Source of the DNA: Dictyostelium discoideum
Taxonomy: Eukaryota
Direction: 5' to 3'
Length of the DNA: 64,000 nt
NCBI GenBank assembly: GCA_000004695.1
Contig: CM000150.2
Span: 2,368,001-2,432,000 of the forward strand
The notes beneath the pieces were generated by a model that worked only from the letters and a program-made list of their open reading frames with translations, was not told where the DNA came from and searched no databases. Below, piece after piece: positions 1-59,961 of the stretch. The first letter of the stretch is position 1. Every line of letters begins with the position of its first letter. Both the position numbers and the translations under genes were made by a program.

Positions 1-297
1 ATAACAATACCACAATCAAAAACGACCTAAAAAAATTGTACAATTGAAATTTTGTCTTTTTTTTTTTTGAACTAGATTACTCAATTATTACTTCTCCTTG
101 AATGAAAAAATTTTGTGTTTAGCATGTAAGATTCAACATTGAATATCTTAATACAACTACTTAAGGAGACTTTCCATTACTATTATTTCTACTAGTGATA
201 AGCAAACATTTAAATTTAATTTATAATTTTATTTTTGCCAATAAATTAACCTCATCATGGCATCGAACATGCGATCTTTTGTGGAAAAAAAGAAAAG

Positions 298-369
298 CTC
301 CCCATTCGGGAATCGAACCCGAGGTACCAGTGTGAAAGACTAGAGTGTTACCGACTACACCAATGAGGA
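298..369 (-). tRNA. tRNA-Glu (anticodon TTC)
   Basis: The reverse complement folds as a cloverleaf with acceptor TCCTCAT/ATGGGGA and anticodon stem CTAGT/ACTGG. The anticodon loop is CTTTCAC and the T-arm is TCGGGTTCGATTCCCGA. Confidence 0.7.
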
Positions 370-416
370 ATTTCATGAAAAATTAATTACAATAGTAGTA
401 TTGGTAGTTGTAAAAT

Positions 417-1190
417 AAATTTATTCTTATTCAAAAGTAAGAAGTAAAATACACTGCTCATATTGATGGGTTAAAGCAAAATCTCCTCGGGACATGTCCA
501 TGTATAACTGACCAATAAGTATCGCAACCAAAAAACTCCTAAATGAGGGATTACAATACTATCATCGAATCTGGGGAGGTAGCTTCCAAAAACCATCCGA
601 CGGCACAACGGCCGACAGGTTACCCCGGTATGGCACAAGCGAAGCCGTTGGTTAGTCAGTCACTGCAACAGTAAACGTGTGGCACACTGGCGAGACACTT
701 CAAGTAACGGGAAGGAGGCTGATGCCTCTGGGACACAAAGTAAGTCGATAAAAGTAAAAATATATAAAAAGACGAATGGCGAGTGAGTGGCGCGAGAGAT
801 GAGAGCGAGTGTCGGTCACGAAAGTGGCTTAAGGTTTCACCGATAGTATGAGTGGAGGTTGGGTAGTTGTGGCACCATCAACTTCAAGACCCCCCATAGT
901 GTCGGCCGAGGATAAAATAAAAAAATGATTTAGAAAAAAGTTTGGACAAAAAAGATGTTTTAATCAAAAGTAATAATACAATTCAAAATTTGAAACAAAA
1001 AAAAAAAAAAAAAAAAAAAAAGTAAACTAACCTCTTTTAGAGACCCTGTAAAAAACTACAAATAAAATGAGATCTAGCATCTCAAGGAGAAGAAAGTAAT
1101 AATTGCGTTATCCAATTCAAAAAAAGTAGTTGTAAACAGGAGAAGCAACTAATAATTGCGTTATCCAATTCAAAAAAAAAAAAAGTAGTT
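417..1190 (+). mobile_element. TRE5-type retroelement remnant, head-to-head and ~48 bp upstream of tRNA-Glu. It has an unusual GC-rich 5' part at 470-912, followed by a TRE5-A B-module fragment and a C-module with a duplicated tail.
   Basis: Bases 912-1000 match the TRE5-A B-module and the ORF1 5' codons (DDKIKKDLEKSLDKKDVLIKSNNTIQN). Bases 1030-1190 match the C-module (gagatctagcatctcaaggagaag...ttgcgttatccaattcaaaaaaa), present twice. The 5' boundary lies at tRNA end + 48 bp. Confidence 0.5.
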
Positions 1191-1204
1191 GTAAATGTAC
1201 AAGA

Positions 1205-1440
1205 AAAGTTAGGTTTACTGATATGTATAAACAATGTTGATTATATAGTTGTAATGGTTGAAGTGAAAAATCTCATGCTAAATGATAGTCCCTCCAGAAG
1301 TAATAGTGGTAGAAGTGGTAGTAGTAGAACAAGAAAGTAAAGTTTGGTTTACTGATATGTATAAACAATGTCGATTATATATATAGTTGTAATGGTTAAA
1401 GTGAAAATCTCACGTTTATGATAGCCCATCCTGAAATAGC
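1205..1440. repeat. Two tandem ~135-bp direct repeats (agtttggtttactgatatgtataaacaatgt.gattatata...gttgtaatggtt.aagtgaaaa.tctca), followed by a poly(A) tract at 1621-1680. Possibly the 3' end of an unclassified element.
   Basis: Read directly from the sequence. The two copies are ~90% identical. Confidence 0.5.
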
Positions 1441-1689
1441 AGTAGAAATAGGAGTAAAAGATAGTTAAGAAGTGATAGTAATAGTAAATTGAAGTTCCAG
1501 TCATTAGATTCAGTGTTACAAATCCATGCAAGAATATAGGTAATAGAGTTGTTCAAGTCGAAGTGACAGTTTTGTTATTTAACAATTTCAAGAAATTTTC
1601 AAGGTCTACATCTTTGGAAATCAAAAAAAAAAAAAAATCAAAATCAAATCAAATCAAAAAAAAAAAAAAAAAAAAAAAAAATATATTAT

Positions 1690-2068
1690 TGTTTTTTTCT
1701 AAGAAAGAGAGTGGTCTTGTGATTGATGGAGGTGTAATGATATCTAATTGATTATCAAGTCCTTTGTTTAGTGAGAGTTGGTTTGTTGGGGTTTGTTTTT
1801 TAGGTGTGTAGATTTTTGCGCTTTTGTTTTTTGTTGTTGAGGTTGTGGAGGTATTATTTGTATTGGTTGTGTTGTTATCTGTATGATTTAACTGTAATTC
1901 AGTTGAGTGATCATCAGCCATTGTTGAAAAGTATATAGGACGATAGCCCTTGCTTTAATGAGCAAAAATAGGGTAAAATTATGAGGAATGAATGTGGCGG
2001 TGAAGATATAACAGTGATTTATTTATTATATGTATAAATTCTCGTTTATTTCTTTGTTTTTTTCGGTT
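1690..2068 (-). mobile_element. TRE3-family element, 5' fragment (5'UTR plus the first 77 codons of ORF1, MADDHSTELQLNHTDNN...). It is downstream of the minus-strand tRNA-Gln.
   Basis: Near-identical to the 5' end of the TRE3 copy at 30483-31100. The ORF track gives a 90-aa ORF1 fragment at 1649-1921. Confidence 0.7.
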
Positions 2069-2124
2069 TCGTTTATCAATTAGGAATCGAACCAACAACC
2101 TATTTTTAGTTTTTTAAAAAAAAA

Positions 2125-2197
2125 TGGTTCTACTGAGACTCGAACTCAGATTACAGGATTCAAAGTCCTGGGTGCTAACCAATTACACTATAAAACC
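2125..2197 (-). tRNA. tRNA-Gln (anticodon TTG)
   Basis: The reverse complement is GGTTTTATAGTGTAATTGGTTAGCACCCAGGACTTTGAATCCTG...TAGAACCA. The anticodon loop is CTTTGAA. An exB-like box (ggttcgattcct) lies ~25-45 bp downstream at 2082-2100. Confidence 0.85.
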
Positions 2198-3017
2198 TTT
2201 TGATTTTTTATGTAATAAAGTTACTCTATAAAATTAATAGATATTAAATATGCATATTACATTACTAATTATAGTTGACACACATTTAAATAATATATAA
2301 TAATAATAATAATAATAATACTGTCAACTCATTATAAACAATATAAATACTAAAGAATAATTTTATTAACAATATTGAATATTATAAATATAAACTAATA
2401 TTAAATAAAGATAACAAAGTATTATTCAATTATATAATTATTAATTATATATATTTATAAAGCTAACAAGCTTTATTACATTTAATAATGAACGTCGTAT
2501 TCCAATTCCTATGTAAACTTTTGATAATTTGTATACCTTATATACTTGTGTGACCCTTGAACACACAGAAATAATTAATAATAAATAATAAATAATATTA
2601 TATATCTTATAATATTATATGTAATAAAGTTTTGTTTGTGCACAATTTTGAATAAAACAACAATGAATTAATTTTTATTTTATTTACTATTTTTACTAAA
2701 ATTAATTTTACTAAAGAAACCGTTGGTAAAATTTCTGAGAATAAAGTAAGAATCTTGTATTTTTTAACATCTTTTCAGTTTCAGATCTATTTCTATATTT
2801 GTATTTTACTAGGGATAAAAACTTTATAAAAAAATTTATGTCGCTTAATTATTCGCGATTATTACATTCTTAATTAAAACGTCGTATGTCAGTCTCCTCC
2901 CCATATTCGATTATAGTATTTTTATCCCTCATTTCGGGAGTTTTGAGTTTGTGTTGCTTAATATTCGTGGGATTATTTAATATGATAACTGCTATTTTAA
3001 AAAAAAAAAAATATCAA

Positions 3018-3090
3018 GGTTTTATAGTGTAATTGGTTAGCACCCAGGACTTTGAATCCTGTAATCTGAGTTCGAGTCTCAGTAGAACCA
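3018..3090 (+). tRNA. tRNA-Gln (anticodon TTG), an identical inverted copy
   Basis: Same 73-nt sequence as 2125-2197 on the opposite strand. An exB-like box lies at 3118-3135. Confidence 0.85.
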
Positions 3091-3149
3091 TTTTTCCCAC
3101 CCCTAAATAAAAGGTAGTAGGTTCGATTCCTATTTTGGTGAAATCTAAT

Positions 3150-3450
3150 TGAGAAAGGAAATTGGAATATTCAAGAACATTATCAAACTTTAACCATACT
3201 CAATTAAAAACAACCTCACAAAAACTCAAAAAGAAACCCAAACCATCAAAAAATTTAAAAAAGAATGGAGCATAAACACTAATGAACCAATTCCAACAAT
3301 TACACCACCAATTAATTATTAATTACCTAATCTAAAATAACATACCATTTTAAATTCACAAAAACTAAAAACCTAAAATAAATAAATATAAATAACATAC
3401 TAATTGTATACTACAATAGTTTATTTATATCAAAAAAAAAAAAAAAAAAT
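3150..3450 (+). mobile_element. TRE3-family element, extreme 3' fragment (last ~57 codons of ORF2 ending ...EPIPTITPPINY, then 3'UTR and oligo(A))
   Basis: The protein and 3'UTR match the reverse complement of the 42880-43100 copy. It lies downstream of the plus-strand tRNA-Gln and its exB box. Confidence 0.7.
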
Positions 3451-3551: not shown

Positions 3552-17174
<13,623 letters not shown>

Positions 17175-22484: not shown

Positions 22485-22751
22485 AGATCGAAAAAAACAA
22501 ACAACAACAACAATCTCTTTTTTTGATTATTTCATTTTTCATATAAAAAAGACTTAAAAAACAAATAAATAAATAAATAAACTATTTTAAAAAGCCATCT
22601 TTTTACTTTATTGTAATTTATTATTTGTTTCGTTTTGAGAATTTTGCGTAGCAAAATTTTCAAAAAAAAAGCAAAAAATAATCAGATCGAAAAAAACAAA
22701 CAACAACAACAATCTCTTTTTTTGATTATTTCATTTTTCATATAAAAAAGA

Positions 22752-22803
<52 letters not shown>

Positions 22804-24509
22804 GGAACCAAGTTAATTAGAAAATTTCCAGATTTTTAACTTTTTAAAGAAAAATAAAAAAGATAGAAAGAAAATAAAATGAAAATCACAAACAACACCA
22901 CAAATATTAAGCAACACAAATGCCTACAAAAAATAAGCGAAATTGTGGATAAAACTCAATTAAAAAAAAAACAATTCAAATACGTCATAAACATCAATCA
23001 CGAACCAGACGATAAAATAAAAAAAGATTTAGAAAAAAGTTTGGACAAAAAAGATGTTTTAATCAAAAGTAATAATACATTCAAAATTCTCACAGACAGT
23101 ATTAGTACAGTAATCTATTTTGTAAATATGTTTGATGCAGAATTAAAAGGACAATTTATAACCACTATAAGACCAAAAAATATGTATACAGATTTTGATT
23201 GGTATAAATCACTCACAGAAATAGAATGGGTAATAGAAAATGAAGGATGTAAACTAATTAAATCAGAAATTAAAGGCGAAACTCTAATTATCAAAACAGT
23301 GAAAAGAGTCGTAGAAGAATTTGACACTATCATTGAACTAGACAATCTAACATTAATTGGACACTCCAACAAAGGATGGAGAGATCAAACCTCATTACCA
23401 GAAAATCAAGAAGAAAACAAAAATAAAAAACAATCAGATGAACAACAACCACAATCTACATCAGAACAAATACCAAAACAAGGAAAAAGAACAATCATTA
23501 TCCCACCAATCACATCCTCATCTAATGATAAAACATTTATGGCCCTAGATGATACAGCTCAAAAGGTAATAGAAGCATCACTAGAAAACGTAGATGAACT
23601 AACAAGAATAGAGAATGAGATCAATACACAATCGATAAACAATCAAGAAATTAAAACAAAATCAGAAAAACCTATCGAACCACCATCTCCATACAATACA
23701 CCAATAAAACAACACGGCGAAACAAAGGGACTAACAACGGAAGAAAAACTTAGAGAGGCAAATGATATCTTCGACTTCACCAGCCCAAACACTGATGCAA
23801 TAAGAAAAATAGAATTCCCACTTTCAATCCCTTCAAATCAATGGTTCTTCTCCTCTCCAATAAAACATATCATGAGTTTCAGCCCAACCTATGGTACACC
23901 ATCGAAAATTATCGATTCACCAAGTAAATTGTTAAACACACCAAAAAAGAAACAACAAGACAAAACAAACAAGACCAACAAAACACCAGTCAAACCAAAA
24001 TTGGGTGAATATGGACAAAAAAGCATAAAAACAAAAATGGATGAAGATATAGACAACTTCAACAAGGAAATTCTAAAACAAATCAATAAATCAAAAAACC
24101 CCACAAACACACAAGACCAACAACACAACGAACAAAGTAAAGATCAGTTAGAAGACAAAATAAACCAGAAACTTCAAAAGGTAGATAAAAATCTACCCCA
24201 AATAAAACTATAAAGAAAAACACAATAAGAATAGGTGTTTGGAACGTCCAAGGATCCAACACCATCCAATCTGCCAGCATAATAAACACCGTTTTAGACA
24301 ACAACAAGCTGGACGCAGCACTTCTAACTGAAACAAATATAAAAACAAATAAAATTTACTCAATAAATCAACAATATAAAAACAAAATAACACACCACGC
24401 ACCAATTGATAAAACAGGACAAGGGGTGTCACAAATCATCATCAACACCCGTAATAGAACTTCCTAAACATCTCAAAAAATACAATAATTCACTCAGTAC
24501 TTTCTATAA

Positions 24510-25162: not shown

Positions 25163-25610
25163 GGAACCCAAGTTAATCAGAAAATTTCCAGATTTTAACT
25201 TTTTAAAGAAAAATATAAAAAAATAGAAAGAAAATAAAATGAAAATCACAAACAACACCACAAATATTAAGCAACACAAATGCCTACAAAAAATAAGCGA
25301 AATTGTGGATAAAACTCAATTAAAAAAAAAACAATTCAAATACGTCATAAACATCAATCACGAACCAGACGATAAAATAAAAAAAGATTTAGAAAAAAGT
25401 TTGGACAAAAAAGATGTTTTAATCAAAAGTAATAATACAATTCAAAATTCGAAAAAAAAAAAAAAAAAAAAAAAAAAAGGTAAACCAACCCCTCTTTTAG
25501 AGACCCTGTAAAAAAAAAAAAAATAAAATAAAATGAGATCTAGCATCTCAAGGAGAAGCAAATAATAATTGCGTTATCCAATTCAAAAAAAAAAAATTAT
25601 TTATTTTTTT
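24905..25610 (+). mobile_element. TRE5-A, 5'-truncated copy (ORF2 tail, oligo(A), 3' B-module, C-module) in tandem with the preceding element
   Basis: The ORF2 3' end (RAAW...QRPEEQNKLDSLISLKLLQFSRQWNSPLH...STFYK) is followed by the B-module (25160-25440) and the C-module (25480-25610). Confidence 0.7.
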
Positions 25611-25898: not shown

Positions 25899-26496
25899 TT
25901 ACCACCAATATAACGGATAAGATCGTTTTCTAGCAAAATTATTTACAACCAATGCAGTTAATAACATTATAAGTGCACCTGATAAAATTGGTACAAATAT
26001 AAAGTAAAAGCCTCTCCAACGTTGTTCAACACCCATAACGCAGATTAAAGCAGTGGCTCCACCTGGTGGATGTAAAGAATTTGTAAATTGCATTAACATA
26101 ATCGATAAACTTACAGCCAAAGCACATGCAACTTCAAAATTGGCATTGGTATATACTAAAGCAACTCTAATAACCGAACCAACTACTGCAGATAGGAAAT
26201 GACCCATAATTAAATTTCTTGGTTGAGCTAATGGGGATTTTGGTACACCAAATATAATCACAGCAGAAGCAGCAAAAGAACCAATCAAAACTTGCATTTG
26301 AGCATCAAGTGCTTCACGATAATGAATTAAAGCTAAAACTAGAATACCAGTAAATGAAGCCAACCAAGTCCACCCTATCTCTTCTAAATCTGGTATTGGT
26401 GGTCTTTTATCTTTACCAGTTCCTAACCATTTTTTAAAATATTGAATTATATACATTTTTATACAAAATAAAGTTTTTTTAAATTTTCTGTCTTCA

Positions 26497-26565
<69 letters not shown>

Positions 26566-26756
26566 TCACCATTTTCAAAACTTTCAATTTTCTTTTCACC
26601 TCTACGCACATCATCTTCTGAAATATCAATTTTTTCTAAATTTCTATTTATTGATTGGTCTATTGAAATTTCAAGGTTTGTTGATTGTGACATATCAATA
26701 CTTGATGATGATGAAATATCACTACCAATATTTCTTTCCAAATTTCTATCTTCCAT
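25899..26756 (-). CDS. HPP-family integral membrane protein (285 aa)
   Basis: Four or five predicted TM helices and the diagnostic HPPGGA motif (...FTNSLHPPGGATALI...). An N-terminal poly-Asn tract. The stop lies at 25899. Confidence 0.7.
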
Positions 26757-30482: not shown

Positions 30483-33400
30483 AAAGTAAAAAAACCGAAA
30501 AAACAAAGAAATAAACGAGAATTTATACATATAATAAATAAATCACTGTTATATCTTCACCGCCACATTCATTCCTCTTAATTTTACCCTTTTTTTGCTC
30601 AATAAAGCAAGGGCTATCGTCCTATATACTTTTCAACAATGGCTGATGATCACTCAACTGAATTACAGTTAAATCATACAGATAACAACACAACCAATAC
30701 AAATAATACCTCCACAACCTCAACAACAAAAAACAAAAGTGCAAAAATCGACACACCTAAAAAACAAACCCCAACAAACCAACTCTCACTAAACAAAGGA
30801 CTTGATAATCAATTAGATATCATTGCACCTCCATCAATCACAAGACCACTCTCTTTCTTAGAAAAAAACAATAACACCATCAACATTAAGTGTTACTTTA
30901 ATCAACCACACATCCGTGAAGAATTAACCTCAAAAGATGACACAAGAATTCAACAAATTCACAAAAACATTCACAAACTCTTCGAAGATATACTGTCGCC
31001 ATCAGCATTTAAAATAATTGGTGCAACTGCCTTCGTAAATTGCAACGTTGATAAATTAACTTCAATAATCAACCTTCAAAACCAACTTGCACTAAATATC
31101 GACAAACTCAACTATAGATTCGATATATCATCAAATGATTATGCAATCATTAAAACATTCATTAAAACGTACTCACCCAAACATGCAAACGAGGCAATTA
31201 CAAACAACCTCACTAAATTCACCAGTTGTACATCAATTGAATCATTTACTGTCACATACTCATATGCTGTTGCGTTTAAAAGCTACATTATAACATATCA
31301 TCTAATTGATCACACACACAACATTGTTGATCAAAAGATCGAACAACCATCTGGTATCACAAGATATATCAAAGCTGCAACACGTAGTGTCACTAAACAC
31401 AAAATTCAACATGCAAAAAATGCAGATATGGCAACAACTATAAAAAATGCCATCACAAACCCAAACATGAACAAAAACAATCAACCACCAAAAAACAACA
31501 TTAAAACCCCACCAATCAACGAAATTGCAAATTCCAATCGCAATAATAACTCACTTCAAAATAGTGGTTCAAAAGCTATACTAAATGAATCACTTGATAT
31601 TAACAATCAATCCCAAAACAATAATGAAATATCACACAAAAGTGATTCTTCAAATAATAATAACGGGAAAAACTCATTATCAATGAGCAATCCAACCGAT
31701 CCAACAATTGTACCACAAAAACCTCTACAATCTCAACCAAACAAACCAAGTGCACCAACTCAAAATACAATAAATACAAGAAGAAGCAGCAATGCCCTGA
31801 CTACACAACCAGTCAATACTGGTGCTGCCAAACCTAGTAAGGTATGAGCTCAAAAATCAACTTTATAACATGGAATTGTAGAGGATTCACTGAAAACCCA
31901 AACAATCAACACAATTCCTACCAAAAAGCTGTTGACACACTACAACTACTTATATCAAAACTTCCACCTCGTCCAACAATCTCAATACTCACTGAACTCA
32001 ATTCATCACCATTACAACTTAAACATGATTTTCCCGATCACATCATCTCTGTCACCAAACGAGGAAATGGTGTAATCATCATTAACCATAACCCAAACAC
32101 ACTCAAACTCAAACACATATCAACAATTGATGGTAGAGCTATTTTAGCAGACGTTATATTTCCAAATCAATTACCAATTGGTATTCTTGGAATTTACGCA
32201 CCAGCATCAAATAATACCATCAAAAAGAATTCATATGCAACTTCACTACAAACACTTCTCCACAACCACTCAACAAACCCAATACCAAACCAATCCCAAC
32301 ATGTATCTATTATCGCAGGAGATTTCAACTGTATCCACAACGACAATTCACTATTAGATGATATTATCCAATCCTACACATACCAACACCATCTAATTGA
32401 TCAAGGTGAATTTAAAAACACTCCAACTCATACACATGGTAACAGATTAGATAGAATATATACTCAATACAATAGAATAGACCCTGAAAATATATATACT
32501 CAAGTCCACCAAATTCCATCTTCATTATCAGATCATAATCCAATATCAACAACATTTTCTTCACCTTTTCAAATAAATAAACATAAGAAAAGATGGATAT
32601 TATCACCTGGTACTGCAAATGACCATGAAGCAATCAATATTATCAATCATTTAATAACTAATCACAATAACACATCAATCAATCAATTTACAAATTGGTC
32701 AAAAGTAAAATCAAAAATTATTAAAACTCTAAAAAACTATCAATATAACAAAGACAAACAAACTCAACGTGCAAAACAAATACTATTAGAAAAAGCAGCA
32801 AAATTCAAACATCTTGAAGAACAATGCATCGCTGAATACAATATTATATGTAACAAAAACAAATTACATCAAAACCACACAAACATATTAAAAAAACATA
32901 TAAATGGAGAAATACCTAGCAAGTATCTATCAGCAATACTAAACAAAAGATCAAAAGATGCAAAAATTGAATCAATCCAATATGGTAACATCATTACATC
33001 CGACCCCGACCAAATTGAAAATGCGTTTGTTGAATTCTACACAAATCTATATAGCTTACAAATATGTTGTCCAATTACTCACCAGCTCATGCTAAACACA
33101 TGGCCCATCATAAAAAATGAATATTGGAATGGTTTAGACTCACCATTTATACAAGATGAAGTTGAAGCTGCAATTAAAACCTGTAACCCCAACAAATCAC
33201 CCGGTCCAGATGGCGTTACAAATGCATTCTACATTAATCATTTAAACCAAGTTAAACCAATTCTCACTACATTATTCAACGATATACTAGAAAATCCTCA
33301 CCACATCACAACAGAATTCACAGAAGGTCTTATACACACAATATACAAGAAAGGCAACCCCTTACTCATATCAAATCGTCGTCCCATTACACTTCTAAAC

Positions 33401-35851: not shown

Positions 35852-36690
35852 TCTTTTTTATATGAAAAATGAAATAATCAAAAAAAGAGATTGTTGTTGT
35901 TGTTTGTTTTTTTCGATCTGATTATTTTTTGCTTTTTTTTTGAAAATTTTGCTACGCAAAATTCTCAAAACGAAACAAATAATAAATTACAATAAAGTAA
36001 AAAGATGGCTTTTTAAAATAGTTTATTTATTTATTTATTTGTTTTTTAAGTCTTTTTTATATGAAAAATGAAATAATCAAAAAAAGAGATTGTTGTTGTT
36101 GTTTGTTTTTTTCGATCTGATTATTTTTTGCTTTTTTTTTGAAAATTTTGCTACGCAAAATTCTCAAAACGAAACAAATAATAAATTACAATAAAGTAAA
36201 AAGATGGCTTTTTAAAATAGTTTATTTATTTATTTATTTGTTTTTTAAGTCTTTTTTATATGAAAAATGAAATAATCAAAAAAAGAGATTGTTGTTGTTG
36301 TTTGTTTTTTTCGATCTGATTATTTTTTGCTTTTTTTTTGAAAATTTTGCTACGCAAAATTCTCAAAACGAAACAAATAATAAATTACAATAAAGTAAAA
36401 AGATGGCTTTTTAAAATAGTTTATTTATTTATTTATTTGTTTTTTAAGTCTTTTTTATATGAAAAATGAAATAATCAAAAAAAGAGATTGTTGTTGTTGT
36501 TTGTTTTTTTCGATCTGATTATTTTTTGCTTTTTTTTTGAAAATTTTGCTACGCAAAATTCTCAAAACGAAACAAATAATAAATTACAATAAAGTAAAAA
36601 GATGGCTTTTTAAAATAGTTTATTTATTTATTTATTTGTTTTTTAAGTCTTTTTTATATGAAAAATGAAATAATCAAAAAAAGAGATTGA
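34920..36690 (-). mobile_element. TRE5-A copy. Its 5' end lies ~47 bp upstream of tRNA-Thr. It has a five-fold tandem array of the ~189-bp A-module (35862-36690), then the B-module and ORF1 (35725 down into the gap).
   Basis: ORF1 (303 aa shown; MKITNNTTNIKQHKC...) is identical to the 22879 copy. The A-module unit gtcttttttatatgaaaaatgaaataatc...gatggctttttaaaatagtttatttatttattt is repeated at a 189-bp period. Confidence 0.8.
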
Positions 36691-44308: not shown

Positions 44309-44745
44309 GGAACCCAAGTTAATCAGAAAATTTCCAGATTTTTAACTTTTTAAAGAAAAATAAAAAAAATAGAAAGAAAATAAGATGAAAATCACAAACA
44401 ACACCACAAATATTAAGCAACACAAATGCCTACAAAAAATAAGCGAAATTGTGGATAAAACTCAATTAAAAAAAAAACAATTCAAATACGTCATAAACAT
44501 CAATCACGAACCAGACGATAAAATAAAAAAAGATTTAGAAAAAAGTTTGGACAAAAAAGATGTTTTAATCAAAAGTAATAATACAATTCAAAATTCGAAA
44601 CAAAAAAAAAAAAAAAAAAAAAAAAAAGGTAAACCAACCCCTCTTTTAGAGACCCTGTAAAAAAAAAAAAAATAAAATAAAATGAGATCTAGCATCTCAA
44701 GGAGAAGCAAATAATAATTGCGTTATCCAATTCAAAAAAAAAAAA
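43988..44745 (+). mobile_element. TRE5-A ORF-less derivative (A-module x1.4, oligo(A), B-module, oligo(A), C-module), ~45 bp upstream of tRNA-Trp
   Basis: The module order A-B-C contains only the first 62 ORF1 codons that are embedded in the B-module. This is consistent with recombination between the 5' and 3' B-modules. Confidence 0.75.
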
Positions 44746-45299: not shown

Positions 45300-45470
45300 G
45301 AAAAAATGAAATAAACATCTTTGGGTTATTCCCTAAAAAGAAGACACCTTAGCAAAGTGTATAACCCATTTGGTTTTCGATGACACCCAAGCAAAGTTTT
45401 TTACCCATTAGGTTATCTATGACAGTTTAGCGAAGTGTATTACCCATTTAGTATTCCTTAACAACTTTTT
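45300..45470 (+). repeat. Tandem array of three to four 40-50-bp units. Each unit is the first ~15 nt of tRNA-Ser(GCT) plus ~25 nt of its native 5' leader.
   Basis: gacaccttagcaaagtgtataacccatttggttttcgat / gacacccaagcaaagttttttacccattaggttatctat / gacagtttagcgaagtgtattacccatttagtattcc. Further copies occur at 46160-46215 and, inverted, at 59962-60105. Confidence 0.6.
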
Positions 45471-46190
45471 TTTGAATTGGATAACGCAATTATTAGTTGC
45501 TTCTCCTTGAGATGCAAGATCTCATTTTATTTGTAGTTTTTTACAGGGTCTCTAAAAGAGGGGTTAGTTTACTTTTTTTTTTTTTTTTTTTTTTGTTTCA
45601 AATTTTGAATTGTATTATTACTTTTGATTAAAACATCTTTTTTTCCCAAACTTTTTTCTAAATCTTTTTTTATTTTATCGTCTAGTTCGTGACTGATGTT
45701 GATGATATATTTGAATTGTTTTTTTTTATTTGAGTTTTATCCACAATTTCGCTTATTTTTTGTTGGCATTTGTGCTTAACTTGGTTGCCAGGTTTTTTTT
45801 TTTTTTTTTTTATTTTTTTTTTTTTTTTAGTCTTTTTATATGAAAAATGAAATAATCAAAAAAAGATACCTCCACCAAAGAATAAGTAACACTCCTACTT
45901 CATATATAAAACTGTGGGAAGAGGAACTCAAAAACAACAACAACAACAAAACAACAACAACAAAACAAAATCAACTACACTGGCAATGCAAGCAAGCATG
46001 GACCCAATTAAAAACTCCACAAAATAAACAAACACACTACGAAAACCTCCCAAAATTAAAAAAAATATACGAGGATATGATGACAACCCAATCTCCAGAA
46101 CACAACAAATTCATACCAACTCCTGGCCAAAAAGAAATAATTACCAAAATTAATAGCAAACACCTTCCTTTCCCTTGACAACTTAGCAAA
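45470..46190. mobile_element. Composite TRE5-A debris. A minus-strand piece (C-module, B-module, 36 bp of A-module; 45470-45872) abuts a plus-strand ORF2 internal fragment (45873-46190; 112-aa ORF ...RYLHQRISNTPTSYIKLWEE...).
   Basis: Module sequences are recognisable by comparison with the 56925-59945 copy. The junctions are abrupt. Confidence 0.6.
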
Positions 46191-46215
46191 GTATTTTACC
46201 CATTTGATATTCGAT

Positions 46216-46296
46216 GACACCTTAGCAAAGTGGTTAATGCGGCGCCCTGCTAAGGCGTTCTCTTCGGAGGCGCAGGTTCGAACCCTGCAGGTGTCG
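46216..46296 (+). tRNA. tRNA-Ser (anticodon GCT)
   Basis: GACACCTTAGCAAAGTGGTTAATGCGGCGCCCTGCTAAGGCGTTCTCTTCGGAGGCGCAGGTTCGAACCCTGCAGGTGTCG, with a long variable arm. An exB-like box acaggttcgattcctgttg lies at 46318-46338. Confidence 0.9.
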
Positions 46297-46516
46297 AATT
46301 TTTAACTTCCAAACCTGAATAACAGGTTCGATTCCTGTTGTATTATATACAAAATAATTCTCGATAACAGCTAAATTTTCATGGGTGCAAGAATTAAAAA
46401 TAATATAAATAATTAATAAATTAGTAATCAAATCTATAATTTAAAAATAAAAACTAATTAACAAGATTAACAAATCGGAACAGATTTTATATAAATTTTT
46501 TGTTTATGAGCACAAT

Positions 46517-56753: not shown

Positions 56754-56792
56754 TATTTTATTACGTGATAAAAAAAAGATAAAAAGATAGAT

Positions 56793-56873
56793 CGACACCT
56801 GCAGGGTTCGAACCTGCGCCTCCGAAGAGAACGCCTTAGCAGGGCGCCGCATTAACCACTTTGCTAAGGTGTC
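56793..56873 (-). tRNA. tRNA-Ser (anticodon GCT), second copy
   Basis: Exact reverse complement of the 46216-46296 gene. Confidence 0.9.
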
Positions 56874-56924
56874 ATCGAAAACCAAATGGGTAATACACTT
56901 CATTTAACCAAATGTGTAAAGGAG

Positions 56925-59457
56925 ATCGAAAAAAAACAAACAACAACAACAATCTCTTTTTTTGATTATTTCATTTTTCATATAAAAAAGACTTAAAAAA
57001 CAAATAAATAAATAAATAAACTATCTTAAAAAGCCATCTTTTTACTTTATTGTAATTTATTATTTGTTTCGTTTTGAGAATTTTGCGTAGCAAAATTTTC
57101 AAAAAAAAGCAAAAAATAATCAGATCGAAAAAAAACAAACAACAACAACAATCTCTTTTTTTGATTATTTCATTTTTCATATAAAAAAGACTTAAAAAAC
57201 AAATAAATAAATAAATAAACTATCTTAAAAAGCCATCTTTTTACTTTATTGGTGTATTGTATGGAGATGGTGGTTCAATAGGTTTTTCTGATTTTGTTTT
57301 AATTTCTTGATTTTTTATCGATTGGGTATTGATCTCATTCTCTATTCTTGTTAGTTCATCTACGTTTTCTAGTGATGCATCTATTACCTTTTGAGCTGTA
57401 TCATCTAGGGCCATAAATGTTTTATCATTAGATGAGGAGGTGATTGGTGGGATAATGATTGTTCTTTTTCCTTGTTTTGGTATTTGTTCTGATGTAGATT
57501 TTGGTTGTTGTTCATCTGATTGTTTTTTATTTTTGTTTTCTTCTTGATTTTCTGGTAATGAGGTTTGATCTCTCCATCCTTTGTTGGAGTGACCAATTAA
57601 TGTTAGATTGTCTAGTTCAATGATAGTATCATATTCTTCTACGACTCTTTTCACTGTTTTGATAATTAGAGTTTCGCCTTTAATTTCAGATTTAATTAGT
57701 TTACATCCTTCATTTTCTATTACCCATTCTATTTCTGTGAGTGATTTATACCAATCGAAATCCGTATACATATTTTTGGTCTTAGAGTGGTTATAAATTG
57801 TCCTTTTAAACTACCACTCAAAATGGTCCTCACAATAATGAACTTACTCAATGAATCAGAAACATCAGTGTACATCAATAACTCATTATCTAAAAGCTTT
57901 ACATCAAAAAGAGGAACCAAACAAGGTGATCCTATCTCTCCCACTATCTTCGCATTAGTGGTTGAATGCATGGCAACTACTATAATAAATGACCGCTGCA
58001 TCAATGGTGTAACCAAAGAAACCATTAAAATACTACAGTTCGCCGATGATACAGCAACAATAGCATACAACTTTATGGACCATTTCCTCATGAATGAATG
58101 GATCAAGAAGTTTTGCCAAGCAACCAGCGCAAAAATAAACCAAACCAAATGCTCGTGTATCACTTTCAAATGGAACACCAGAACGCTATACACCGTCATA
58201 AAATCAAACGAAAGGTACCTCGGCTTTGACTTCAACAATAAGGGTATCAAATCCAAAATCAATACAATCTCAGACAACATCAGAGCTAAACTAGTAACAT
58301 GGAACTCAACTTCATCAACCTATATGGGCAGACTCATAATGGCAAAAACATATGCACTATCTCAGTTAACGTTCCACACTTACATCAACACCACACCACA
58401 ACACAATAGTATTGAAAATAACATCGTAAAATTCGTTTTCAACACAAAATCTAAAAACTCTCTTTCACTACAAAGAAGACAAAACAACTATATCAATGGT
58501 GGCCTAAACTTATGGAACCTGAAGACAAGAGAACTAGCACAGAAAGCATGGTTATTCGAAAGATACCTCCACCAAAGAGTAAGTAACACTCCTAGTTCAT
58601 ATATAAAACTGTGGGAAGAGGAACTCAAAAACAACAACAACAACAAAACAACAACAAAACAAAATCAACTACAACTACACTGGCAATGCAAGCAAGCATG
58701 GACCCAATTAAAAACTCCACAAAATAAACAAACACATTACGAACACCTCCCAAAATTAAAAAAAATATACGAAGATATGATGACAACTCAATCTCCTGAA
58801 CACAACAAATTCATACCAACTCCTGGCCAAAAAGAAATAATGACCAAAATTAATAGCAAACACCTTCCATTTAAAGAAATCAAAAAAATAATAAACATGA
58901 AAGGTAGAGATCTATTATGGAGATACACACTGAAAGCACTACCAAAAATATACAACATGCCATGCCAACAGTGTGGGGAAGATGAGACCTCAGAACATAT
59001 ATTCTTCAACTGCAAAGCCCACATCAAAAACACACAAGAAATCTTCAACTACACCCTAACTAAGTGTGGACACACCACTCACACCTGGAATGTGAAGATT
59101 TTAAACCATCTACAAATTGCACTAGTAGCCAATTTAATAGCTATTATATTCGATAAAATCTGGCACAAAAGAAATAAACTCATTCACGATGAAAAAGAAA
59201 TAATAATTCACAGACAACAAGTCATACGTGAACTAATTAAAACACAAAGAGCTGCATGGGACAGGACACAAGCGGTTATAAACAAAACATTAAGAATCAA
59301 ATCAAAGCAACGGCCAGAAGAACAAAATAAATTAGACTCACTAATCTCGCTAAAGCTATTACAATTTAGCAGACAATGGAACTCACCTCTTCACGCAATA
59401 GAACTTCCTAAACATCTCAAAAAATACAATAATTCACTCAGTACTTTCTATAAATAA

Positions 59458-59516
<59 letters not shown>

Positions 59517-59945
59517 GGAACCCAAGTTAATCAGAAAATTTCCAGATTTTTAACTTTTTAAAGAAAAATATAAAAAATAGAAAGAAAATAAAATGAAAAT
59601 CACAAACAACACCACAAATATTAAGCAACACAAATGCCTACAAAAAATAAGCGAAATTGTGGATAAAACTCAATTAAAAAAAAAACAATTCAAATACGTC
59701 ATAAACATCAATCACGAACCAGACGATAAAATAAAAAAAGATTTAGAAAAAAGTTTGGACAAAAAAGATGTTTTAATCAAAAGTAATAATACAATTCAAA
59801 ATTCGAAACAAAAAAAAAAAAAAAAAAAAAAAAGTAAACTAACCCCTCTTTTAGAGACCCTGTAAAAAAAAAAAAAAAATAAAATAAAATGAGATCTAAC
59901 ATCTCAAGGAGAAGCAACTAATAATTGCGTTATCCAATTCAAAAA
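56925..59945 (+). mobile_element. Rearranged TRE5-A copy, ~50 bp upstream of tRNA-Ser. It has A-module x1.7 (56925-57240), an inverted ORF1 segment (57241-57807, reading on the minus strand), the ORF2 3' two-thirds (57808-59457: RT, Cys/His and C-terminus), oligo(A), the 3' B-module and the C-module.
   Basis: A 176-aa minus-strand ORF matches ORF1 residues ~103-278. The 556-aa plus-strand ORF has the RT motif QFADDTATIAY and the CCHC-like motif CQQCGEDETSEHIFFNC, and ends ...STFYK. Confidence 0.75.
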
Positions 59946-59961
59946 AAAAAAAAAAAAAAAA

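Follow-up and report, generated by a model that had tools for sequence, protein, structure and literature searches.

A GC-rich island beside a Dictyostelium tRNA-Glu gene is retroelement cargo and may descend from a template switch by the TRE5 reverse transcriptase

Results

A composite insertion upstream of tRNA-Glu

The 64,000-nucleotide stretch of Dictyostelium discoideum DNA analysed here (the window) carries a tRNA-Glu(UUC) gene on the minus strand at 297-369, and 101 bp from it begins an island of unusual composition. The island (470-912) has a GC content of 48.3%, compared with 25.4% for the whole window. When all 64 kb are scanned, the maximum for 443 nt falls at 469-911 (48.5%), and the second-ranking stretch is a GTT-repeat at 16025-16467 with 42.4%. 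A reading of the sequence alone had picked out this GC-rich island and placed it about 100 bp from tRNA-Glu, and both observations hold. The features of the locus, together with an older relative further along the window, are as follows.

297-369, minus strand: tRNA-Glu(UUC), the integration landmark (called by ARAGORN; 56.3 bits with the Rfam tRNA model; A-box/B-box pair in the motif scan)
404-414, plus strand: target-site duplication (TSD) copy 1, GTAGTTGTAAA, an exact 11-mer that lies upstream of the tRNA, 35-45 bp from its 5' end
415-430, plus strand: 16 nt at the 5' junction, ataaatttattcttat, which may be additional nucleotides or a heavily eroded stretch of module (blastn homology to loci L001 and L003 begins at 431; similarity 5' of there is weak)
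431-904, plus strand: GC module, corresponding to the island, 5'-truncated and without its first ~90 nt, the A/B-box head (blastn and alignments with L001 and L003)
609-617, plus strand: first arm of a 9-nt complement, CGGCCGACA, kept in the homologues L001 and L003
900-908, plus strand: second arm of the complement, TGTCGGCCG, which straddles the module/B-module fusion at 904/905 and is missing from L001 and L003
905-996, plus strand: 3'-terminal piece of a B-module of TRE5-A type, with the end seen in 3' UTRs, caattcaaaatttgaaac (alignment and junction comparison; 96% identical to B-module ends at 23008-23088 and elsewhere)
997-1021, plus strand: internal oligo(A), the spacer between B- and C-module as in other TRE5-A 3' UTRs (in every aligned 3' B-C copy)
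1022-1118, plus strand: TRE5-A C-module (similarity to the window's B-C copies)
1119-1125, plus strand: A7 tail of the composite, from the sequence
1126-1136, plus strand: TSD copy 2, an exact repeat of the 11-mer at 404
1137-1184, plus strand: a second, extremely 5'-truncated TRE5-A insertion into the same target, in which cagg (4 extra nt) is followed by 31 nt of C-module end and A13 (sequence compared with C-module ends)
1185-1195, plus strand: TSD copy 3, an exact repeat of the 11-mer
2879-2982, minus strand: diverged, truncated, older relative of the module, which begins ~47 bp upstream of tRNA-Gln (plus strand, 3018-3090)

The segment 415-1125 is one retrotransposition unit between 11-bp TSDs, upstream of tRNA-Glu. 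The 11-mer GTAGTTGTAAA occurs exactly at 404, 1126 and 1185, and since its second copy closes the composite, the unit represents a single integration event. It is composed of the 5'-truncated GC module, ~86 bp of B-module end, oligo(A), a C-module and A7, in this order. The element start (415) lies 45 nt from the tRNA-Glu 5' end (369) in a head-to-head arrangement. TRE5 elements are characterised by insertion ~48 bp upstream of tRNA genes, where they duplicate the target site and face the tRNA with their 5' end.

The sequence-only reading had assigned the 3' part to ordinary TRE5-A B- and C-modules. This is correct from 905 onward, where eight other copies in the window match and share the same starting point (~908), but the B-module is represented by its last ~86 bp (of 290 bp) only. 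In detail, 908-1125/1136 is 91-93.5% identical to the B-C copies at 25368-25591, 44514-44740, 59722-59947 and 45458-45682, and an alignment of 905-1125 with five other 3' B-C ends gives 84-93.5% identity (91-93.5% for four of them). The TRE5-A ORF1 of the window and AX4 DDB_G0293142 share 99% identity. TRE5-A has the layout AB-ORF1-ORF2-BC, with an A-module of ~200 bp as its 5' end. Upstream of the B-module, 415-904 shows no similarity to the TRE5-A A-modules at 22485-22780 or 35894-36689. The composite contains neither ORF1 nor ORF2; its longest ORF measures at most 55 aa and all six frames are closed. The island at this locus is dead, inert retroelement cargo, without A/B-box head and without ORF, rather than a gene. 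An identity as DGLT-A LTR was ruled out, because DGLT-A integrates 13-18 bp upstream of tRNA genes (PMC6101501) while this element starts 45 bp from the tRNA and ends in a TRE5-A C-module. That C-module, located at the TRE5-A 3' end, is essential for retrotransposition in a published assay (PMC3159450).

The relative upstream of tRNA-Gln was recognised by blastn (516-579 against 2960-2896, 81.5% identity) and by a profile match with nhmmer (E=5.5e-8). It opens with 23 nt that match the TRE5-A B-module at 22 positions, and module sequence follows. Because this fragment joins the module to B-module sequence, it hints at a TRE5-derived module rather than a host RNA, and it is an observation that sits uneasily with a template switch.

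RNA, protein and foreign-DNA searches

The sequence-only reading had also proposed that a 9-nt complement closes a structured RNA of ~290 nt, and that gggaaggaggctga (at 709-722) resembles the CR-I motif of RNase P/MRP. The complement exists, 1-3 nt from where that reading had placed it, but it is not meaningful evidence of a closing helix. Perfect inverted pairs of at least 9 nt are found in 17% of 500 dinucleotide shuffles of 470-912, so the complement is not above chance. Its core, CGGCCG, is self-complementary, and minimum-free-energy folds leave the 609-617/900-908 pairing unused. Folding z-scores against shuffles are weak for the window copy, at -1.20 (580-912), -1.49 (418-912) and +0.94 (minus strand); the full-length L003 module reaches -2.56. 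RNAalifold, applied to two copies whose close similarity gives the comparison low power, found a double change in none of 109 predicted pairs.

Searches with Rfam 15 lead to the same picture. At E≤10, positions 1-3200 match only three tRNAs and, as noise, one miRNA; at gathering thresholds the whole window yields tRNAs only, and the full-length L001 homologue yields noise only. The models for RNase P, MRP, SRP and snRNA, which that reading had singled out for comparison, give no match even at E≤10.

A 43-aa ORF of the module (MRDYNTIIESGE...) stays open through two opposite A-run indels. We set a coding role aside because its sole homologue is the P0001 gene model, and exact protein look-ups were also negative for the island ORFs of 43 and 55 aa. 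The suggested horizontal acquisition also finds no backing: blastn detects no match in 7.3 Gb of plasmids, 28 Gb of E. coli genomes or 2.3 Gb of phages, and exact scans with conserved 22-26-mers detect none in bacterial and archaeal genomes, metagenomes or viral contigs.

Homologous modules in other Dictyostelium genomes

A six-frame ORF search matched P0001 and led to locus L001, and protein-index routes gave only L001 and L003, neither of them a stand-alone source gene. The copies in hand are three modules (window, L001 at 9798-10365 and L003 at 5389-5950) and the one old fragment, which together form the whole sample behind the template-switch reading discussed below. By blastn, window positions 431-904 are 87% identical to L001 9891-10365 and 88% identical to L003 5477-5950; over ungapped columns, the window copy is 93-94% identical to them, and the range among the module copies is 93-94.5%. 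The complete module is ~565 nt long, has 47-48% GC and is non-coding. The three copies carry 16, 10 and 15 lineage-specific substitutions without a GC-to-AT excess, i.e. without decay. The L003 module is separated from a tRNA-Thr by a 49-nt spacer, and at L001 a minus-strand B box (9690-9698) would put a +1 ~48 nt from the module start.

Two of the origins that the sequence-only reading had offered are affected by these homologues. A 5' module of a different TRE5 type is borne out in so far as TRE5-type elements of two other Dictyostelium genomes carry a homologous module at their 5' end; this is the clean match to a transposon 5' region that, according to that reading, would make the island a TRE module. 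A captured RNA is likewise one of the two options to which the homologous modules of L001 and L003 point, but not in the form of a structured ncRNA gene at this locus, for which neither covariance-model match nor compensatory pairs were found.

The 3' end of the module falls on the same nucleotide in all three copies (...CCATAsTrTCG), while the LINE partners differ. In the window, the partner is a TRE5-A cut inside its 3' B-module, ~86 bp from the B-module end. In L001 it is a TRE5-A-type element cut at ORF1 codon 6, and in L003 an element of a different TRE5 family, cut ~15 codons before the ORF1 end and ~45 nt before the ORF2 ATG. The LINE part of L003 has a nucleotide identity of 69% to the ORF2 of L001 and L002, and of 72% to L005; the modules themselves are 92% identical. 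The LINE-derived part spans ~220 bp in the window versus more than 4.8 kb with both ORFs in L001. There, the module supplies an in-frame ATG (10262) to an intact 489-aa ORF1, which is followed by an intact 1142-aa ORF2, and L001 therefore looks like a working LINE. In L003, no ORF1 follows the module. The LINE parts of L001 and L003 are interrupted by LTR elements, and flanking by one TSD was seen for the window chimera. No U-tract was seen at the module junctions.

The GC module is absent from the complete L002 element (A-B-ORF1-ORF2-B-C), whose ORF2 is 99% identical to that of L001. It is also absent from the complete TRE5 elements L004, L005 and L006, from the D. citrinum locus L007, which carries A-module repeats, and from the window's own TRE5-A copies. 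We considered whether these modules mark TRE5-C, which has been described as lacking a 3' B-module and having a C-module 78% identical to that of TRE5-A (PMC3159450). The window copy departs from this description in retaining a remnant of a 3'-type B-module and a C-module 91-93.5% identical to TRE5-A copies. L001 at first resembles TRE5-C in its missing 3' B-module and diverged C-module. However, L001 has a 3' B-module into which, after 10 nt, an LTR retrotransposon has inserted, and 15182-15463 represents the end of that retrotransposon. The near-identity of the L001 ORF2 to that of the canonical L002 element also opposes the assignment. L005, a TRE5-C-like element without 3' B-module and with a C-like tail 85% identical, carries no GC module. 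This comparison uses the published description of TRE5-C, whose 5' end may already be known to resemble the module.

A Pol III-like head

The head of the full-length module opens with G at +1; the A box follows at +8, and the B box comes after a further 33 nt. This arrangement is intact in L001, which reads TAGTGCAGTGG, a 33-nt gap and GTTCGATAC, with a G at -7. In L003 the A box is present and the B box contains one extra T (a 1-nt insertion). A-box/B-box layouts of this kind are typical of tRNA genes. Scanning 179 kb on both strands for A-box plus B-box pairs, with the motif definitions of PMC5391098, returned 20 matches, of which 17 are ARAGORN tRNA genes; the 18th reuses the B box of tRNA-Ser (46215-46297), and another is the L001 module head, apart from which the pair is almost confined to tRNA genes in this sequence. 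Judged by these motifs, the module head resembles a Pol III promoter. As a tRNA it is not recognised: 96-nt slices of L003 and L001 have no tRNA-model match at E≤10, and ARAGORN calls none. Near module position 245, both L001 and L003 contain an internal TTTT that could terminate Pol III. The B-box insertion of L003, this internal TTTT, a head unlike the tRNA model and junctions devoid of a U-tract all count against the template-switch reading discussed below.

Discussion

We propose, with some confidence, that GC modules joined to TRE5 parts are template-switch chimeras in which the module is a mobile sequence or separate RNA. Either the module itself or its ancestor would be a separate RNA, for which Pol III acting through the internal A and B boxes is a plausible polymerase. 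In the course of target-primed reverse transcription, the TRE5 enzyme would begin copying a TRE5 RNA at its C-module/poly(A) end, halt part-way and jump to the 3' end of the module RNA, thereby creating a module-LINE chimera. The chimera at tRNA-Glu would have reached its site as a composite retrocopy with the module as its 5' part, and its product would be inert. The island would then owe its high GC to the make-up of its source RNA and to having been copied recently. As in such chimeras, the three copies combine a fixed end of the 5' partner with a variably 5'-truncated LINE, and the window copy also has a TSD, a LINE 3' end and an A tail.

A possible though less probable explanation is that one TRE5 subfamily, for instance TRE5-C or the LINE family of L003, naturally has the module as its 5' UTR and internal promoter. 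The window copy would then be an internally deleted or recombinant non-autonomous derivative, mobilised in trans by TRE5-A proteins in the manner of TRE5-A.2. This would readily explain why the module always lies at the extreme 5' end of TRE5-type elements and at the TRE5 integration distance, why it gives L001 its start codon ahead of intact ORFs, and why the fragment near tRNA-Gln runs from B-module into module; it is also in line with the exchangeable 5' promoter of TRE5-A and with the mobilisation of ORF-less constructs in trans (PMC3159450). Yet one identical module end faces three partners and three truncation points, which argues against a 5' UTR, because nothing would make a UTR break at this point within a longer RNA. 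Moreover, the modules are 92-94% identical and the LINE parts ~69%, which suggests that the module co-evolves with no partner. The complete TRE5 elements examined (TRE5-A in three species and the types of L004, L005 and L006) are devoid of the module, and the module of L003 leads into no ORF1.

That a functional structured ncRNA gene, be it RNase P/MRP/SRP-like or new, is expressed here and closed by the 609-617/900-908 helix appears very improbable. The high GC amid an AT-rich genome, the L003 module that folds somewhat better than its shuffles and the well-conserved core across three copies could all be taken to speak for it. They are outweighed by a helix that is at chance level, created by the fusion and missing in homologues, and by the lack of an Rfam family at E≤10, of compensatory pairs and of a convincing folding z in the window copy. 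In addition, this copy has lost its 5' head, is enclosed in a TSD-flanked retrocopy and shows indels relative to its homologues. For this locus, the ncRNA-gene reading is largely refuted. Even less probable is an origin by horizontal transfer from bacteria, phages or plasmids, or by contamination during assembly or cloning. Its appeal lies in a GC content of 48%, close to enterobacterial composition; against it stand the negative blastn and 22-26-mer scans, the lack of an ORF and the fact that two independent Dictyostelium assemblies contain the same sequence with the same retroelement surroundings. The contaminant reading is refuted by this, whereas an ancient foreign origin of the module itself is conceivable.

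Returning to the template-switch reading, a tentative extension is that the module may be an unrecognised dictyostelid element, transcribed by Pol III from its A and B boxes. It might be an abundant host RNA or the first SINE-like non-autonomous retroelement of Dictyostelium, spread via jumps of the TRE5 reverse transcriptase. In L001, such a jump might have given a 5'-truncated TRE5-A-type LINE a new 5' UTR and start codon with its ORFs intact, and L001 would then show LINE 5'-UTR replacement as it occurs in nature.

For annotation, these results remove a false ncRNA candidate and explain the window's most GC-rich 443 nt as retroelement cargo. For transposon biology, they point to a GC-rich module that is mobile, has a Pol III-type head and, in three Dictyostelium genomes, is joined to different TRE5 LINEs always at one constant nucleotide. 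Should it represent a separate RNA, TRE5 makes template-switch chimeras as L1 and MGL do. TRE5 integration complexes act at Pol III genes and would have Pol III transcripts within reach. To our knowledge, the acquisition of 5' UTRs by LINEs has so far been inferred mostly via sequence comparison, and an L001-type chimera, if active, would be a concrete case of a LINE gaining a new 5' UTR. If the module is the known TRE5-C 5' end, the finding is ordinary.

Several known systems resemble parts of this picture. A/B-box loci of the extrachromosomal rDNA palindrome of Dictyostelium (PMC5391098) share with the module a +1 G, A box, B box, tRNA-like spacing, absence of any other tRNA context and a link to TRE5-A. 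As the source of the module they were set aside after a weak test, in which none of the 31 published locus primers matched at ≤4 mismatches. Like tRNA-derived SINEs, the module has internal Pol III A and B boxes at its 5' extreme and a non-tRNA body, and in the window copy a LINE-matching 3' tail. Unlike them, it has a head without detectable tRNA fold or homology and, rather than a fixed tail, a LINE part that varies from ~220 bp (window) to both ORFs (L001). A limited literature search, which is weak evidence, found no description of a Dictyostelium SINE.

TRE5-A.2 and the synthetic TRE5-A(bsr) (PMC3159450) are comparable to the window copy in that it has no ORF2, relies on a TRE5-A C-module 3' end and has integrated, with duplication of the target, ~45-50 bp upstream of a tRNA gene; in all of them the 5' region may be heterologous. 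The window copy differs from both in having neither A-module nor ORF1, in its ~86 bp of B-module and in a GC module outside the described A/B/C set.

The closest parallels to the proposed chimeras are WEIRD-MGL ('MINE') of Magnaporthe grisea, LINE template-switch chimeras between short direct repeats (n=33; PMC2104539), and mammalian U6/L1. These share the bipartite structure, the copy of a non-coding RNA (a putative one in Dictyostelium) at the 5' end, the variably 5'-truncated LINE 3' part, the short direct repeats that flank the whole, and the use of the LINE's own integration machinery and site preference. The Dictyostelium LINE differs in being a tRNA-gene-targeting TRE5, and its 5' partner, known from the chimeras alone and as a candidate RNA, measures ~565 nt, has 47-48% GC and bears an A/B-box head. 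Compared with the 33 WEIRD-MGL chimeras there are three in Dictyostelium, of which L001 keeps both ORFs intact.

A GC-rich module inserted upstream of tRNA-Glu

The window as a whole has 25.4% GC and contains 9 tRNA genes and many TRE-type retroelements; its TRE5-A ORF1 shares 99% identity with D. discoideum AX4 DDB_G0293142. The GC-rich island reported by the sequence-only reading is real: 470-912 has 48.3% GC, 469-911 is the window-wide GC maximum at that length, and the runner-up of equal length (42.4%) lies within a GTT repeat. The features at this locus are as follows.

297-369 (-), tRNA-Glu(UUC)
404, 1126 and 1185, 11-mer GTAGTTGTAAA
415-1125, insertion starting 45 nt from the tRNA-Glu 5' end and facing the tRNA
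431-904, GC-rich module, fused at 904/905 to TRE5-A cut within its 3' B-module
1137-1184, second TRE5-A insertion, so strongly truncated at its 5' end that 4 extra nt are followed only by the final 31 nt of the C-module and by A13
2895-2962 (-), fragment resembling 516-579
3018-3090 (+), tRNA-Gln

The 3' part had been read as TRE5-A B- and C-module, which is correct. From ~908 on, the sequence matches 8 other places in the window, all starting at this common point, and consists of the B-module end, an internal oligo(A) and the C-module (as defined in PMC3159450). Since GTAGTTGTAAA occurs at 404 and 1126, 415-1125 is a single insertion with flanking target duplication. The second insertion reused the same 11-bp target, hence the triplicate.

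Past the third target copy (1197-2069) lies a ~125-nt tandem duplication (1201-1323 / 1335-1456, 81% identity), and the stretch closes with a long A-rich run (1620-1680). Here, 1686-2069 is 98% complementary to 30491-30874; as both are downstream of tRNA genes, they are probably TRE3-type elements. Further along, a TRE5-A adjoining tRNA-Ser(-) 56792-56874 (A-module 56930-57116, ORF2 part from 57808) is plus-oriented except for a 533-nt ORF1 segment (57245-57777, vs 23176-23708), suggesting an internal inversion or a rearranged copy. An uninterrupted, simple-repeat-rich 4540-aa ORF (3552-17174, -) is found 2.4 kb away from the island; no annotated protein matched it in a look-up by exact sequence.

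Within the window, 431-904 has no counterpart apart from 516-579, which is 81.5% identical to the fragment at 2895-2962. This fragment lies upstream of tRNA-Gln, starting ~47 bp away, and opens with 23 nt that agree with the TRE5-A B-module at 22/23 positions. On the minus strand of the 2491-2982 region, module homology stops after ~100 nt at ATACGACGTT. This 10-mer occurs twice, 387 bp apart (2878-2887 and 2491-2500), and may be the target duplication of an AT-rich insertion.

Homologous copies of the module

DNA searches of plasmids, E. coli genomes, phages, metagenomes, prokaryotic genomes and viral contigs gave no match, which speaks against the proposed horizontal acquisition. A protein search with the joined stop-free translations of the island matched a single gene model, P0001, from 'Dictyostelium cf. 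discoideum'. The sequence at this locus (L001) is 87% identical to window 431-904. Further loci were reached by tracing relatives of the L001 element's ORF2. One of them, L003, comes from the assembly of a D. discoideum strain; its module copy (5389-5950) shares 88% identity with the window copy and 92% with that of L001. No stand-alone source locus of the module turned up along these protein-level routes.

Identity among the three copies is 93-94.5% when gapped columns are left out. They carry comparable numbers of lineage-specific substitutions (16, 10 and 15), among which GC-to-AT changes are not in excess. The GC content of the window copy is carried over from its source and has not eroded so far. 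The window copy lacks ~90 nt at the 5' end of the full-length module, which measures ~565 nt. In L003 the module starts 49 nt upstream of a tRNA-Thr(-), head-to-head; in L001, a minus-strand B box (9690-9698) would place +1 ~48 nt from the module start.

A fixed module end with changing LINE partners

All three copies end at one nucleotide (...CCATA[C/G]T[G/A]TCG), and the sequence that follows differs in each.

Module partners and module-free TRE5 elements
L001: TRE5-A-type partner, beginning at ORF1 codon 6
L003: partner of a different TRE5 family, beginning ~15 codons before the ORF1 end and continuing into ORF2
L002: module-free; tandem A-modules, B, ORF1, ORF2, B, C; ORF2 99% identical to that of L001
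L004, L005, L006: types without the GC module
L007 (D. citrinum): A-module repeats instead of the GC module
Window TRE5-A copies: A-modules

At the nucleotide level, the LINE part of L003 shares no more than 69% identity with L001/L002 ORF2 and 72% with L005. None of the complete TRE5 elements examined carries the module. We considered L001 to be a TRE5-C-like element with a diverged C-module and rejected this: 15182-15463 is the terminus of an LTR retrotransposon that sits 10 nt into the 3' B-module, so the LINE part is ordinary TRE5-A type for that genome. Related LTR termini, starting TGTTAGAGACTC... and easily mistaken for a diverged C-module, interrupt both module-bearing LINE parts (L001 15182-15463, L003 8537-9000).

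In L001 (10262-15156), an in-frame ATG from the module (10262) restores the 5'-truncated ORF1 to an intact 489 aa, of which the N-terminal 35 are new; the 1142-aa ORF2 behind it is intact as well. The NCBI model P0001 differs in that module-derived codons are spliced onto ORF1.

Structured RNA and Pol III signals

A 9-nt complement had been noted as one that could close a structured RNA of ~290 nt. The complement exists, at 609-617 / 900-908, shifted by 1-3 nt from the positions first reported. When the region is shuffled by dinucleotide, 17% of the shuffles contain a perfect inverted pair of 9 nt or longer, and minimum-free-energy folds of the island do not use the helix. Its second arm is missing from L001 and L003 and spans the 904/905 junction in the window copy. 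In Rfam, only the neighbouring tRNAs match the region at E<=10. With no Rfam match, a chance-level helix and an arm absent in homologues, reading the island as a structured RNA is wrong. For folding, the plus strand has z-scores of -1.2 and -1.5, the minus strand one of +0.9. All six frames of the island are closed (longest ORF 55 aa). A 43-aa ORF (MRDYNTIIESGE...) is open at window 543-674 and in L003, and has 81 aa in L001; in the window copy, two opposite single-base A-run indels preserve the frame relative to the others. Its one homologue is the P0001 model.

The module head (first ~70 nt) begins with G, followed seven nt on by an A box, TAGTGCAGTGG. In L001, a B box, GTTCGATAC, comes after a 33-nt gap; in L003 the B box contains an additional T. 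A scan of 179 kb on both strands with published D. discoideum A-box/B-box motifs (PMC5391098) gave 20 hits, including 17 ARAGORN tRNA genes, the L001 head and an 18th tRNA-linked hit sharing the B box of tRNA-Ser 46215-46297. Another pair (window 25980-26032, +; 33-nt spacing, G at -7), which neither ARAGORN nor Rfam calls as a tRNA, falls within the span of a 285-aa minus-strand ORF (25899-26756) and may be a chance match. No tRNA fold is detectable in the head. Its boxes suggest that the module may be transcribed by Pol III; internal TTTT in two copies and the absence of a U-tract at the junctions call for caution.

Origin of the composites

The composites fit chimeras formed during target-primed reverse transcription. 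The TRE5 reverse transcriptase would start at the C-module/poly(A) end of TRE5 RNA, quit this template part-way and resume synthesis at the 3' end of another RNA. We infer this from the fixed module end joined to three unrelated breakpoints in three LINE partners, from the high module identity despite low partner identity, and from the target duplication around the whole window composite, integrated at a TRE5 site. According to the main rival, a TRE5 subfamily, possibly TRE5-C, has the module as its native 5' UTR, and recombination would then have spread it. This would account for the module's position and for the L001 element, with its in-frame ATG and two intact ORFs, but less well for the fixed end and the discordant divergence. 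The early suggestion that the island is a 5' module borne by a TRE, or else a captured RNA, holds, as the homologous module heads TRE5-type elements. If the module matches the deposited TRE5-C 5' end, the finding is ordinary; it gains interest should the module turn out to be a Pol III transcript in its own right or a SINE-like element. No function is expected of the window copy at the tRNA-Glu locus: the head is missing, there is no ORF, and indels set it apart from its homologues.

RNA-to-RNA template switching is established for U6/L1 and WEIRD-MGL chimeras (PMC2104539). What the chimera inferred here would share with them is a LINE enzyme switching to a second RNA. The composite is a variant of LINE-mediated chimera formation or of 5'-module exchange, both of which are known.
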